The translations under genes were made by a program, and so were the position numbers. The notes under the pieces were generated by a model. It worked only from the letters and a program-made list of their open reading frames with translations, was not told the DNA's origin and ran no database searches. This document shows, piece by piece, positions 29,809-42,825 of a stretch of DNA of 64,000 nucleotides; position 1 is the stretch's first letter, and every line of letters begins with the position of its first letter. The stretch comes from Patescibacteria group bacterium (GTDB lineage Bacteria > Patescibacteriota > Microgenomatia > UBA12405). The stretch spans positions 122,371-186,370 of the forward strand of contig JBBTXE010000001.1 in assembly GCA_038062455.1 (NCBI GenBank), given 5' to 3'.

Positions 29809-30354
29809 ATGATCAATGATAATGAAAAAAATGGAAGTAACCTTGAAACACAAGAACTTTTTTCCAGGTTAACCAGATGGGTTAAAGAAAGATCCAAAAA
29901 TTTTGTTCCGGAACGATTAAATCCCGAACAAAATGCCAGAAAACAAATATTTAAGGCTATTCAAACGAACCTATCAGGTAATTCAGAAAAGCAACAAAAA
30001 TCTATATCAAAATCCAGAAACGCAATTTTAAAAAATCTCAAAAGTTTTCCCGGCGGTAATTTTAAAAAACCCGATAGTAAAACTGGAGAAAACATCACTG
30101 CTTCAATTACTTACGATTCAGTTGAACAAAGGTGGATAGGTTCAGAACATGGCGAAGATGGTAGACAGATTTCCCAAACGATTATCCCGGTCGATGCTTC
30201 CAAGGCGACTGAACTTAGCCTAACTTTTACCAGCCAGTCATATCTAGACAATAATGCTAACCCCAACATTCTTCATCGGACTGACCTGCCTTGCGCCGCT
30301 TATACGACCTTTAATTTACTGCTAATGCATGTAAAAAGCGGAAATGAAAAATAA
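29809..30354 (+). CDS. Hypothetical protein (181 aa)
   Basis: Start moved to the ATG 2 nt after the ychF stop. The track start 29686 would overlap ychF by 120 nt. Confidence 0.45.
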   Translation: MINDNEKNGSNLETQELFSRLTRWVKERSKNFVPERLNPEQNARKQIFKAIQTNLSGNSEKQQKSISKSRNAILKNLKSFPGGNFKKPDSKTGENITASITYDSVEQRWIGSEHGEDGRQISQTIIPVDASKATELSLTFTSQSYLDNNANPNILHRTDLPCAAYTTFNLLLMHVKSGNEK

Positions 30355-31255
30355 ACTTCTTATCATTTCCGGTCCGACTGCAAGCGGAAAAACTGCCCTG
30401 GCGGTGAAACTGGCTAAAAAATATAATGGTGAAATAATTTCGGCAGATTCCCGACAAATTTATAAACATCTCGATATTGGCACCGGCAAAGATCACCCCA
30501 AAGATGTCAAAATCCATTTAATTGATCTAATTGATCCCGGCCAATCTTTTTCTGTGGCTCAATATCGTAAATTAGCTTTAGCAAAAATTTCCGAGATTCA
30601 GGCCAAAAACAAATTACCTATTTTAGTCGGTTGTAGTGGTTTTTATATTGATGCCGTTGTTAGTCCTAAATATGACACATTTACCATTAAACCAAATTAT
30701 TTATTAAGGACAATCCTTTTTAAATTTCCGGTAAAATTTTTACAATTTTTATTAAAAACCGTTGATAAAAAAACTTTTATTAAACTAAACAATTCCGATC
30801 TCCACAATCCTCTTCGCTTGGTTAGAAAAATTGAAATTAAATTAAGTCGTAGAGACGTACGATCGCGCGTCTCTACGAATACCACATTTGATTATTTACA
30901 TCTCTCTCTCACCGCTCCCAAATCCTATCTCTACGACCGTATCGATGCCCGTGTCGAATCTCGCCTAAAGTTAGGCTTTCTTGATGAAATAAAAAGTGTA
31001 TTAAAGAAATACAATTGGTCCGATCCGGGTCTTAAAATTTCCGCCTATGTTTGCCTGAAACCGTACATTAATAATCAAAACAATTCCGTATTATTGGTCT
31101 GTCTTCAAAAATGGAAATTTAGAGAACACCGCGACGCCCGCCGTCAATTAACCTGGTTCAAAAAATACACCCACGGTATTTTTATTGACATTACTAAGCC
31201 AAATTATCAAAAATCTGTATATAAATCAATTCAAAAATGGTACAATGATACTTGA
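30344..31255 (+). CDS. miaA: tRNA dimethylallyltransferase
   Basis: ISGPTASGKTALAVKLA...IISADSRQIYKHLDIGTGK. Confidence 0.87.
   Translation: MKNKLLIISGPTASGKTALAVKLAKKYNGEIISADSRQIYKHLDIGTGKDHPKDVKIHLIDLIDPGQSFSVAQYRKLALAKISEIQAKNKLPILVGCSGFYIDAVVSPKYDTFTIKPNYLLRTILFKFPVKFLQFLLKTVDKKTFIKLNNSDLHNPLRLVRKIEIKLSRRDVRSRVSTNTTFDYLHLSLTAPKSYLYDRIDARVESRLKLGFLDEIKSVLKKYNWSDPGLKISAYVCLKPYINNQNNSVLLVCLQKWKFREHRDARRQLTWFKKYTHGIFIDITKPNYQKSVYKSIQKWYNDT
30848..30877 (+). repeat. GTAGAGACG palindromic element, copy 1 (in frame in miaA)
   Basis: cgtagagacg-tacgatcgcg-cgtctctacg, 30 nt, encodes SRRDVRSRVST. Confidence 0.85.
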
Positions 31256-32261: not shown

Positions 32262-32567
32262 CTTCGTGGAAATCGATAAGCCGGATTCTGTTTATGGGCC
32301 ATCTATCTAATCTCTCCACCTGGTGCTCTTAAAGTCAAAAGCATAACGCACCGATTTGAGATTTCCACGGAAAGGTTGCCCGTTTCATATCATCCTCGGT
32401 CCGGCTAAAGCCGAGACCGGGACTACTCGTCTCTGTTGCAGAGCCGTCCGATTGCTCGGACCCCTACCTATTCGGGTTTCCTGACTTTGGTGGTCCGGAC
32501 TTTCCTTTTCACCTCGCCGAAGCCGTTAGGCGTAGGCGGGCTATTAGCCCTTCAATTTCTCCGAAGT
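32262..32567 (-). ncRNA. rnpB: RNase P RNA, bacterial type A, short (~305 nt)
   Basis: The minus-strand reading contains AAAAGGAAAGUCCGGACC (CR-I), GCAACAGAGA, UUAAGAGCACC and ACAGAAUCCGGCUUAUCG (CR-V). P1 pairs acuucggagaaau (5') with auuuccacgaagu (3'). Ends are +/-10 nt. Confidence 0.92.
32513..32540 (+). repeat. Hairpin repeat, GCGTAGGCGGG family, copy 3 (inside rnpB, P3-region hairpin)
   Basis: ctcgccgaagccgttaggcgtaggcggg. In the RNA sense this is cccgccuacgccuaacggcuucggcgag, immediately 5' of CR-I. Confidence 0.7.
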
Positions 32568-40048: not shown

Positions 40049-41662
40049 TTGTCAACGCCCAATTATAGCATAAAATGGGGCATGTTCCTCCTTGATCAAG
40101 ACTCCGACCCCAAGACCATACTAAGGCTTCTTTTAAAAAACCGCGGTATTGATGCCGTCAACTTTCACGAGTTTTTAAAGCCTTCTTTTCCTAAAAATTA
40201 TTTAAAGTTAGCCAAAGCCATCAAATTAATCAAAAATTCTTTAACCAAAAACATTCTTATCTATGGTGATTATGACGTTGACGGTATTATCAGTTCTACT
40301 ATTTTGTATCAGTCTCTCAAAAGCCATAATCCTCACACTTTCGCTTATCTTCCTCACCGGGAAAGAGATGGTTATGGAATAAAGGCTACCTCTTTTTTAA
40401 AATTTCAAGAATCTAATAAAATCACTTTTGATTTATTGATCACTGTTGACAATGGTATTGTCGCCGGAGAAGAGTTTAAAAAAATATTAAAAGAACAACC
40501 GGAGTTAAAAATTTTGATTGTTGACCATCATTTGCCTGATAAAAGTAGAGACGTAGCGCGCTACGTCTCTACTGGTATTGAAATTGTTCATTCCACCGAT
40601 ACTTCCGCCTCCGCTTTGGCCTATTTTCTATCCAAAGAACTAACAGCCGACACCGATTTAGGCCTAGCCGCCCTCGGGGTGGTCGCCGATTGTTTGCCCC
40701 TAACCGGCATCAACCGCCAAATTGTGGTCCACGGTCTAAAGTCACTTCGATTTAACCCACCCTTACCCCTAAAACTATTATTAGACACTGTCGGGGTAAA
40801 ACCGGATTCCCTGTCAGTTTATGATTTGAGTTTTATCGTCGCTCCCCGCCTCAATGCTGCCGGCCGCCTCGACGATCCCACCTTAGCCTTTTCTTTTCTT
40901 AATTCCGAAACCGGAGAAGATGCCGGAAACTTTCTATCACTTTTAAATCGTCACAATCAAAACCGTCAGGATTTGGAAAAAAAATCATTAGAAATTGCTG
41001 AAAAAAATGTAGTCATAAAAGATAATTTTATTTTTATTAGTGATAATACTTTTCATCCGGGTGTTATTGGATTAATTGCTGGCCGTCTGACTGAAAAATA
41101 TCATTTACCGTCAATTATCATTTCCGAAGGAGGGGATTTTGCCCGTGGTTCCTGTCGCTCGATTAAAGGCTACCATATCACCAACATTTTGCGACAGTTT
41201 GATGAACTGTTTATTGACCTTGGCGGCCATGCCGCCGCTGCTGGTTTTAGTATTTCTCTTTCAAATATTCCCAAATTAAAAAAGAAATTAGAAAAATATT
41301 TTGCCTCTTCACCGCTAACTACTTTTGACCCTCTGGCTGCTGTCGATGCCCAAATGACGCTGGAAGCGGTTACTTCAAAAAATATTAAATATATTAATTT
41401 ATTGGCTCCCTTTGGAATTGGTAACCCCACCCCAACCTTTTATTTTAAAGACATTGTCGTTACTTCTTTACGCCAAATCGGCAGTACTGGTGATCATCTG
41501 AAATTTAAATTTGGCACCCTCGATGCCGTCGCCTTCCGCCAAGGCAAATTATTCTCCAGTTTAAAAGTTGGCCAGCCTCTCTCCTTCATCGCCTCTCTCG
41601 ACCTCAACACCTGGAACGGCACCACCTCCCCCCAGTTGATAATTAAGGAAATTCTTATATAA
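40049..41662 (+). CDS. recJ: Single-stranded-DNA-specific exonuclease RecJ
   Basis: DHH motifs IYGDYDVDGI, TVDNG, VDHH. DHHA1 GGHAAAAGF. Alternative ATG start at 40082. Confidence 0.88.
   Translation: MSTPNYSIKWGMFLLDQDSDPKTILRLLLKNRGIDAVNFHEFLKPSFPKNYLKLAKAIKLIKNSLTKNILIYGDYDVDGIISSTILYQSLKSHNPHTFAYLPHRERDGYGIKATSFLKFQESNKITFDLLITVDNGIVAGEEFKKILKEQPELKILIVDHHLPDKSRDVARYVSTGIEIVHSTDTSASALAYFLSKELTADTDLGLAALGVVADCLPLTGINRQIVVHGLKSLRFNPPLPLKLLLDTVGVKPDSLSVYDLSFIVAPRLNAAGRLDDPTLAFSFLNSETGEDAGNFLSLLNRHNQNRQDLEKKSLEIAEKNVVIKDNFIFISDNTFHPGVIGLIAGRLTEKYHLPSIIISEGGDFARGSCRSIKGYHITNILRQFDELFIDLGGHAAAAGFSISLSNIPKLKKKLEKYFASSPLTTFDPLAAVDAQMTLEAVTSKNIKYINLLAPFGIGNPTPTFYFKDIVVTSLRQIGSTGDHLKFKFGTLDAVAFRQGKLFSSLKVGQPLSFIASLDLNTWNGTTSPQLIIKEILI
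40544..40573 (+). repeat. GTAGAGACG palindromic element, copy 2 (in frame in recJ)
   Basis: agtagagacgtagcg|cgctacgtctctact is a perfect 30-nt palindrome encoding KSRDVARYVST, just after the DHH motif. Confidence 0.9.
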
Positions 41663-41674: not shown

Positions 41675-42013
41675 ATGGCAAAAAATTATGATAAAGCCGC
41701 AGTTGTTATTGCCCAAGGCCCAAAAGGATGGTTGGAAACTTTTAATTTACACTATGGCTCGGAATTAACTGGCATAGGCGTACGTGCTGACCTTACTACT
41801 AATCGGGTAACTTTTGATCGACGAATTAACAAAGTCACTGTTGTTGATGCTGGTGGGATCGAAATAGTTAGGCGAAAATTACCCTTTATCGGTCAACCAA
41901 TTAAAGTTGGTGTCCCTCCTGCGACTCCTGAACCTGAAAGCGCAATTCGAATTTTGTTTGAGGATGTTATTGGGCAAAAGGCCGCTATTTTGGGTCTAAA
42001 AGTCGAAACATAA
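41675..42013 (+). CDS. Novel small protein, paralog 1 of 3 (112 aa)
   Basis: Shares YD.AAV, TNR(V/I)TF, KVT..D.G....V(R/K)R.LPF..PI.VG(V/I)P.A.P.P...IRI.F.D with the next two ORFs. Confidence 0.6.
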   Translation: MAKNYDKAAVVIAQGPKGWLETFNLHYGSELTGIGVRADLTTNRVTFDRRINKVTVVDAGGIEIVRRKLPFIGQPIKVGVPPATPEPESAIRILFEDVIGQKAAILGLKVET

Positions 42014-42026
42014 TCAGCCTAAATTT

Positions 42027-42095
42027 CAACACCTGGAACAACACCACCTCCCCCCAGTTGATTATTAAGGAAATTATTATATAATATAGGTTAAT
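42027..42095 (+). repeat. Duplication unit boundary R1 (copy of recJ 3' end + TATAAT)
   Basis: caacacctggaacaacaccacctccccccagttgattattaaggaaattattatataatataggttaat. Confidence 0.9.
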
Positions 42096-42431
42096 ATGAC
42101 AAAACGATATGATAGAGCTGCTGTTTTATATGCACACGATTATCTGTCGGGAAATGCAAAAAAATTTGAATTACATTATAATCACGGGATACCTAGCGTG
42201 GGTATAACAAATGTCAACCCCGATACTAATCGAATAACTTTTGCCCCCGATATTAAAAAAGTCACAATAGCTGACACCGGTAATACCACAATGGTTAAAA
42301 GAAGATTACCCTTTTGTCCGCCAATCGAAGTTGGTATTCCCGCCGCGTCCCCCGACCCCTATCAGGGAATCCGAATTTACTTTAAAGACCCAGATGGAAA
42401 ACCAGCGTCCATTCATGGCCTGGAATCATAA
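42096..42431 (+). CDS. Novel small protein, paralog 2 of 3 (111 aa)
   Basis: See paralog 1. Confidence 0.6.
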   Translation: MTKRYDRAAVLYAHDYLSGNAKKFELHYNHGIPSVGITNVNPDTNRITFAPDIKKVTIADTGNTTMVKRRLPFCPPIEVGIPAASPDPYQGIRIYFKDPDGKPASIHGLES

Positions 42432-42434
42432 TAT

Positions 42435-42486
42435 CCTCCCCCCAGTTGCTAATCAAGGAAATTTTTGTATAATATAGGTTAAATAT
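42435..42486 (+). repeat. Duplication unit boundary R2 (shorter, more diverged copy)
   Basis: cctccccccagttgctaatcaaggaaatttttgtataatataggttaaatat. Confidence 0.85.
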
Positions 42487-42825
42487 ATGACAGAAGATAA
42501 AGCCGCCTCTATTTTCATCATAGATCCGAGAGGAATACAAATCGGATCAGATTTGAGATTTAATACGGCATATCCCGATTTTGATATCATCAAAATCCAT
42601 CTCGGCTCCAAACGAATAACTTTCTCTGAGAGAGTTACCAGGGTTGATGTTTTCGACGCCGGCGGTATTCAAACGGTTAAACGTAGATTTTCCGGTATCT
42701 GTAAACCATTCGAAATTGGTATCCCACCTCCAACCCCTAAACCCGTAGAGGGAGTCAGAATTCGCTATAAAGATAGAAAAAATGAACCGGTAGTAATTTT
42801 AGGTATGCTTTCATCTTCTATCTAA
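42487..42825 (+). CDS. Novel small protein, paralog 3 of 3 (112 aa)
   Basis: Most diverged copy. Retains KRITFSERVTRVDVFDAGGIQTVKRRF...FEIGIPPPTPKP..G(V)RIRYKD. Confidence 0.6.
   Translation: MTEDKAASIFIIDPRGIQIGSDLRFNTAYPDFDIIKIHLGSKRITFSERVTRVDVFDAGGIQTVKRRFSGICKPFEIGIPPPTPKPVEGVRIRYKDRKNEPVVILGMLSSSI

Follow-up and report, generated by a model that had tools for sequence, protein, structure and literature searches.

Repetitive extragenic palindromes (REPs) and their REP-associated tyrosine transposases (RAYTs, also called TnpA_REP) are the described systems closest to two short palindromes that lie in frame within recJ and miaA in a 64,000-nt stretch of Patescibacteria DNA (contig JBBTXE010000001.1; the whole stretch is referred to below as the window). 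The element has the layout 5'-GTAG-AGACG, a self-complementary centre of 10–11 nt and CGTCT-CTAC-3'. Both copies are very probably 'double-foot' GTAG-type REPs, cognate to the subclass 2.4 (Bertels group 4) RAYT/TnpA_REP family of HUH-Y1 enzymes.

The relevant passages of Quentin 2018 (PMC6006769) equate TnpA_REP subclass 2.4 with Bertels group 4, characterize its proteins by the motifs NH[IFV]H, WQ and YIxNNP, and assign to it REPs with a 'double foot', 5' GT[AG]G and 3' C[TC]AC. Its hosts are given there as Cyanobacteria, Bacteroidetes and various other phyla, and the double foot is suggested to derive possibly from a REP dimer by a central deletion. Group 4 has been found in 17 bacterial classes, commonly Cyanobacteria, Chlorobia and Caldilineae (Bertels et al. 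2017). The GTAG/CTAC feet, the long hairpin, the NHxH/WQ/YIxNNP transposase and the host range of the double-foot REPs in those passages of Quentin 2018 are all reproduced in our data, and in-frame residence inside the transposase gene matches as well; the window copies differ in that they lie in housekeeping genes, with no transposase gene found nearby. Patescibacteria, or candidate phyla radiation (CPR), are not mentioned in the same passages, the term 'Patescibacteria' is absent from the RepRanger paper (PMC12306157; term search), and a search for literature linking RAYTs or REPINs to Patescibacteria returned an unrelated mention only. The element type is already known, and Patescibacteria are a new host group for it.

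Several other systems resemble the element in part. Di Nocera 2013 (PMC3733652) described GTAG REPs within open reading frames (ORFs), many of them in DNA-repair and tRNA-modification genes. The likeness extends to the GTAG tag, the short stem-loop with a covarying stem, the occasional in-frame residence in ORFs and the RAYT genes flanked by repeats ('REPtrons'); in those REPs, however, the tag is unpaired at one end, whereas the tag of the window element pairs with its complement at the other end. Escherichia coli REPs and their RayT enzyme (PDB 4ER8) share an HUH-Y1 enzyme that reads GTAG beside a hairpin, but those REPs belong to subclass 2.2 and are imperfect, bulged, single-foot and almost wholly extragenic. 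REPINs (Bertels and Rainey 2011, PMC3116915) are likewise non-autonomous hairpin units, thought to be mobilized in trans by a single-copy RAYT, but each consists of two inverted REPs plus a spacer and is several-fold longer than the window element, a single palindrome of 28–29 nt.

Among the Rickettsia palindromic elements (RPEs), RPE-4 and RPE-6 are CGTC-type REPs without a known transposase (Di Nocera 2013, PMC3733652). As a group, RPEs resemble the window element in being palindromic repeats that keep the reading frame of the protein genes they occupy and lie in surface loops, but there is no sequence relation between the two. RPE-1 is about 100–150 bp long and restricted to Rickettsia. The small dispersed repeats (SDRs) of Nostoc, attributed to Elhai and colleagues in 2008, are reported to be 21–27 nt long with conserved secondary structure and compensatory changes. 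They share the cyanobacterial hosts in which the window motif is common.

Two palindromes in recJ and miaA

The recJ copy (40544–40573, unstranded) joins AGTAGAGACGTAGCG directly to CGCTACGTCTCTACT, giving AGTAGAGACGTAGCGCGCTACGTCTCTACT, a perfect 30-nt palindrome in which a 28-nt core (40545–40572, GTAGAGACG-TAGCGCGCTA-CGTCTCTAC) is extended by an outer A/T pair. It starts four residues past the DHH motif and encodes K-SRDVARYVST. The miaA copy (30848–30877, unstranded) reads C-GTAGAGACG-TACGATCGCG-CGTCTCTAC-G around a 28-nt core of GTAGAGACG-TACGATCGCG-CGTCTCTAC (30849–30876) and encodes S-RRDVRSRVST; both of its 10-nt arms are perfect, and its centre is partly self-complementary, with three Watson–Crick pairs and one G–T pair of five. 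An earlier reading of this DNA from its letters, here called the original prediction, had described the perfect recJ palindrome just past the DHH motif and the miaA palindrome encoding SRRDVRSRVST, and we recovered both with the positions, sequences and peptides it gave, the miaA copy being perfect in its arms and only partly self-complementary in its centre.

The stems of both copies are 13–14 bp long, with GTAG at the 5' end and CTAC at the 3' end of each. The pattern GTAGAGACG-N(0-30)-CGTCTCTAC matched the window twice, at the recJ and miaA sites only, and had no match in 100 dinucleotide-preserving shuffles of the window. Allowing up to two substitutions per arm revealed no further copy in the window.

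The two host genes lie on the same strand. recJ (40082–41662, + strand) encodes 526 aa in public assemblies, with a mechanical ORF start at 40049, and carries the Pfam domains DHH, DHHA1 and RecJ_OB. Its palindrome occupies the loop between a strand of the DHH domain (aa 143–148) and the following strand (aa 167–170), and in an AlphaFold2 model of RecJ with a mean pLDDT of 89.8 the block holding the insert is the minimum of the protein, at 61. miaA (30344–31255, + strand; 303 aa; Pfam IPPT) holds its copy in a hypervariable loop 3' of the conserved RKIEIKLS motif. The closest named homologues belong to Candidatus Shapirobacteria/Patescibacteria, which marks the source of the window as a CPR bacterium with a small genome.

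Two side observations concern the centres of these copies. The 28-nt recJ core recurs unchanged, centre TAGCGCGCTA and all, in Parabacteroides distasonis An897 (locus L086, 6371–6398), where it lies within a 401-codon open frame and is read in the same frame (SRDVARYVST); given the limited diversity of centres, this identity may be a coincidence rather than a transfer. The miaA centre TACGATCGCG (30858–30867) includes CGATCGC, which matches the 8-nt HIP1 palindrome of cyanobacteria, GCGATCGC, in all but one base. An insertion of SDR5 within HIP1 in Nostoc has reportedly been described by Elhai, according to secondary accounts.

A palindrome family shared across phyla

We scanned a 596-Gb collection, in which each species is represented by a single genome, for GTAGAGACG-N(4-16)-CGTCTCTAC, obtaining at least 120 matching stretches, and analysed 130 copies. 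Hosts among the matches listed include Bacteroidota, Cyanobacteria, Chloroflexota, Geobacter/Desulfuromonas, Acidobacteriota, Ignavibacteria, Rhodothermales, Zixibacteria, Omnitrophota and Planctomycetota, together with one 'Patescibacteria group' metagenome-assembled genome (MAG) and one Gracilibacteria MAG. Complete genomes of isolates carry the motif as well, among them that of Calothrix PCC 7716. By arithmetic, chance alone would yield roughly nine matches per spacer length in the whole collection, spread evenly over lengths; the spacer was 10 or 11 nt in 123 of the 130 copies.

The nine outer base pairs of the stem are set by the search pattern itself. Inside them, the five pairs of the centre were 86–98% complementary across the 130 copies, with 2–4 pair types each. 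Because the centre pairs vary in type yet stay complementary, they covary, and the conserved trait is the ability to fold as a single strand. Some genomes hold several identical copies (four at locus L072, with repeats also at L009, L028 and L057). There was no target-site duplication above chance in these copies, and immediately outside the element T is weakly favoured on the 5' side and A on the 3' side.

The element resides both within genes and between genes: among the 130 copies, 42 fall in open frames of 150 aa or longer, whereas the frames around 58 others are shorter than 80 aa. As the arms are palindromic, either orientation presents the same three frames, of which xRD[VA]...VST and VET...SL are open and the third contains a TAG stop. 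Both open frames are in use.

The motif is also found in more than 120 viral contigs. As a separate observation, at least five IMG/VR contigs (L138, L139, L141, L156 and L164) have a phage major capsid gene (Pfam Phage_capsid, E = 5e-43) enclosed by two palindromes at a distance of exactly 1857 nt. A search of 1.06 Mb of palindrome-bearing viral contigs found no RAYT.

An associated RAYT-like transposase

Clustering of ORFs around 120 loci, without any prior assumption about their function, produced one family that is present at six loci and always overlaps or abuts the palindrome. Its proteins carry NHLH or NHFH, WQ and YIxNNP motifs. They match the NCBIfam model of the REP-associated tyrosine transposase, NF047646 (E = 1e-15, 57.6 bits), and weakly the Pfam family Y1_Tnp (about 21 bits), and the sole solved structure matched by their profile is PDB 4ER8, the E. 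coli TnpA_REP. The gene at L028 has palindrome doublets on either side and that at L111 has one copy upstream and seven tandem copies downstream, while at L026, L088 and L119 the palindrome lies in frame within the RAYT-like gene itself.

The association also holds in reverse. Starting from 80 metagenomic genes chosen by protein similarity alone, we looked at the DNA up to 600 bp away: 33 genes have the exact palindrome there and 71 a palindrome in which neither arm has more than two substitutions, mostly intragenic. Variants of the arms at these 80 transposase loci covary on both sides, for example GTAGAGACA..TGTCTCTAC.

The tandem copies at L111 (5214–5584, in a Paludibacteraceae MAG) form an array that directly follows the RAYT-like gene. 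The seven copies are slightly degenerate, reading GTTGAGACG...CGTCTTTAC, and recur with a 57-bp period. This geometry of 28-nt repeats and 29-nt spacers is CRISPR-like; the spacers look repetitive.

By analogy with E. coli TnpA_REP and its REPs, and with IS200/IS605, the element would fold into a hairpin in single-stranded DNA, and a Y1 transposase would bind the stem and read the GTAG foot, which is present here on both strands. The enzyme would then cleave and rejoin single-stranded DNA, so that copies could be dispersed and exchanged, and the double foot would permit its action on either strand. Intragenic copies would persist only where the reading frame is kept, two of the three frames being open, and where a surface loop tolerates them. 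The two copies described here would have survived in this way, as about ten extra or replaced residues plus a strong mRNA hairpin. More speculatively, such mRNA hairpins may affect translation.

Comparison with CPR orthologs

In an alignment of 18 RecJ proteins, the window protein has six extra residues (DHHLPDKSRDVARYVSTGIEIVHS versus DHHLKNDHKLPVD------VIIHS), and the site is empty in orthologs that are up to 79% identical. Two RecJ orthologs, P0003 and P0007, carry SRDVACNVST and SRDVINHVST at another loop, which is empty in the window protein; the underlying DNA is GTAGAGACG-TTGCATGCAA-CGTCTCTAC and GTAGAGACG-TGATTAATCA-CGTCTCTAC, respectively. REP-type peptides were found in 15 of 120 RecJ and 19 of 120 MiaA cluster representatives of the clade, at a few recurrent positions. 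The presence of the element is accordingly patchy, with about 13–16% of related CPR orthologs carrying one, and the centres differ between them.

Net lengths do not correspond to the size of the element. Compared with L128, the closest syntenic relative, recJ of the window is longer by a net 18 nt and its miaA by a net 6 nt, the second recJ loop shows a net change of +21 nt, and the MiaA loop ranges from about 9 to 22 residues in an alignment of 21 orthologs. A clean 'empty site' that received 28–30 nt was considered and rejected, as the loops are too variable and the net changes are too small. Host residues may have disappeared, the loops may have differed beforehand, or the relatives may retain decayed remnants. 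The original prediction had assumed that exactly 30 nt were inserted and that the frame was kept for this reason, which the net gains of 18 and 6 nt contradict. It had also proposed that ortholog alignment would expose lineage-specific insertions in surface loops: the loops are indeed variable and the recJ site is empty in the closest orthologs, but there is no clean insertion of ten codons and the element crosses phyla.

Some loops without an intact copy bear a faint likeness to the element. The element-free miaA loop of L128 (1075–1110) reads GGAAAAACA...CGTCTTAAT and a second miaA loop of L132 reads GTAGGGGCGTCGCTT, both too short for statistics; judged on these letters, the two may represent copies that have decayed or suffered an internal deletion. 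The peptide DARSDVFT in ortholog P0130 is a possible decayed remnant at the orthologous position.

A second recurrent insert occupies the same MiaA loop (around aa 169 of the window protein) in 10 of 120 orthologs, reading PLSKGGLRG, PLSKGDLEG or PLFQGGVSEG (P0123–P0126, P0128, P0172, P0201, P0202, P0215 and P0230), and it occurs also at the C-terminus of P0125. No insert of this type is present in the window. Its source may be a different family of palindromic repeats.

Evidence against the assignment

Several points weigh against assigning the window copies to the subclass 2.4 REPs. The scores of the RAYT-like proteins fall short of the curated family thresholds, with 57.6 versus 80 bits for NF047646 and 21 versus 23 for Y1_Tnp; the pattern of motifs and the match to 4ER8 nonetheless still place these predicted proteins in subclass 2.4. 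Using a hidden Markov model built from six RAYT-like proteins together with an HUH...Y regular expression, applied to the window, L127–L133 and L334–L337, we detected no gene of the RAYT type, whether within the window, in ~13 kb past its ends or in ~60 kb of related CPR contigs. Conversely, a BLAST comparison with CPR proteins identified no CPR-like locus among the 80 RAYT loci. Copy number is low as well, with two copies in ~77 kb of a genome of roughly 1 Mb, both intragenic, whereas classical REPs are numerous and mostly extragenic. This lowers the case for a 'typical REP population' but not the case for identity of the sequence family.

Cleavage and rejoining of REP DNA by RAYTs are known in vitro, and REP transposition is not known to have been demonstrated in vivo. 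That any transposase acts within this genome, or that copies have been mobilized in it, is something we infer. Finally, neither the text of Di Nocera 2013 (PMC3733652) nor its supplements contain the string GTAGAGAC, and a literature search for the literal palindrome sequence gave unrelated primer matches only. Genomes that have REP sequences but no tnpA_REP gene are noted in the relevant passages of Quentin 2018 (PMC6006769).

Alternative explanations

The one serious alternative, which we regard as possible though unlikely, bears on activity (the copies being ancient relics where no RAYT is encoded) and not on identity. The elements would have entered a CPR ancestor, no transposase would be active today, and the copies would be inherited and either decaying or tolerated, or even useful as a loop peptide or hairpin. 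Consistent with this are the lack of a RAYT in the roughly 125 kb of CPR DNA searched, the partly decayed miaA centre, the possible remnants at orthologous positions (DARSDVFT in P0130 and GTAGGGGCGTCGCTT in L132) and a strain with proteins 97–99% identical to those of the window (P0008, P0127) that retains both copies. The MiaA loop argues the other way. The same loop holds the element in the window and in L131 and L132 (centre TGATTAATCA), and the arms are identical to those of the window at 18 of 18 positions despite a gene DNA identity of 65–67%, which points to constraint or repeated (re)insertion rather than neutral inheritance. At L133 the same loop carries an element with an 11-nt centre in a register shifted by 5 nt, and a third type of centre is inferred from peptides. 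Different, individually perfect centres and a shifted register in one loop look like turnover or re-insertion rather than passive decay, and the patchy presence among orthologs is likewise at odds with simple relics.

A further idea is more novel, and we consider it quite improbable. Here a clade without a RAYT of its own would keep and swap hairpins at the same loops, whether by mobilization in trans (for example by a phage or host-cell enzyme), by copy-correction of hairpins independent of a transposase, or through exaptation of the REP-coded loop or hairpin by bacteria with minimal genomes.

The palindromes could also act at the RNA level, as stable mRNA hairpins that modulate translation or decay of recJ and miaA, as REPs do at 3' ends. 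The predicted folding energy of the recJ copy is -21 kcal/mol for RNA and -12.6 kcal/mol for DNA, with z about -5.5 to -5.9, and that of the miaA copy is -19.5 kcal/mol for RNA, both RNA hairpins being far lower in energy than shuffled controls, and many REPs have been argued to act as RNA (Di Nocera 2013, PMC3733652). Against these predictions, a scan of the window and eight other loci with Rfam 15 gave no family at gathering score over the hairpin copies, the innermost pairs are complementary too, which the loop of an RNA hairpin does not need, and the position within the ORF varies among orthologs. Such a role would moreover be a side effect of the same element and not a separate identity, and as an explanation of the palindromes we hold it to be very unlikely.

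Even less probable is a double-stranded DNA target of a dimeric protein, either a type IIS restriction–modification system acting at CGTCTC or a regulator binding its operator. The recJ copy is a perfect palindrome to its very centre, and the inverted GAGACG/CGTCTC hexamers pointed out in the original prediction are present and belong to the conserved arm. A role for them as restriction sites is not supported, because the window shows no depletion of CGTCTC, with 24 sites versus 14.5 expected. The centre is constrained to self-complementarity alone, which indicates strand folding and not sequence read-out, and copies occur in coding loops and in a transposase gene rather than in promoters.

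We give hardly any credence to a new, lineage-specific family of in-frame palindromes similar to the Rickettsia RPEs, as the original prediction had it. Residence in frame in two housekeeping genes and the empty recJ site in close orthologs would suit such a family, but identical arms in Bacteroidota, Cyanobacteria, Chloroflexota, Geobacter, Acidobacteriota and others, and in viral contigs, rule it out, and the link to a described transposase subclass shows that the family had already been described. RPEs, at about 100–150 bp, are also unrelated in sequence to this 28–30-nt element of many phyla. What survives of the earlier idea of a selfish, mobile-type hairpin is its in-frame residence in variable loops of protein genes, the analogy with RPEs being one of behaviour only.

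Equally hard to credit is a peptide motif (SRDVxxxVST) selected at the protein level with the palindrome as a by-product. The same type of peptide does recur in RecJ and MiaA orthologs, but the other frame (VET...SL) is used in many proteins, about half of the copies lie outside ORFs, conservation is at the nucleotide level and includes third codon positions, and the centre is free to vary while it remains self-complementary. An assembly or sequencing artefact is practically dismissed, because independent assemblies (ENA Hainich groundwater well H52, Logan and the NCBI MAG GCA_964362845.1) encode the identical RecJ protein, on 12 contigs in all, and the motif is found in complete isolate genomes such as that of Calothrix.

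Other features of the window

Directly downstream of recJ, three consecutive ORFs of 111–112 aa (41675–42825, + strand) have no Pfam family in public gene tables; at the corresponding place 3' of recJ, L128 has two ORFs only, of 121 and 84 aa. Elsewhere in the window, an RNase P RNA (32268–32560, - strand) is a full-length match to the archaeal Rfam model RF00373, at 95.5 bits (gathering score 84). As clan overlaps are reduced to the best match, no model of bacterial RNase P scored higher there than RF00373.

Discussion

The assignment to double-foot REPs explains two odd in-frame palindromes as ordinary members of a described family of mobile repeats, and it averts a false claim of a new element. 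Across this family the 9-bp arm is conserved over phyla and viruses. For protein annotation, the peptide signatures xRDx...VST and VET...SL can serve as a flag for insertions of this kind. If the genome is truly without a RAYT, it would be a test case for the persistence of REPs without their transposase.

For Patescibacteria, the same few loops of RecJ and MiaA have been occupied repeatedly across divergent CPR lineages. REPs extend to the ultra-small genomes of this group, where they survive almost only within genes because intergenic space is so scarce.

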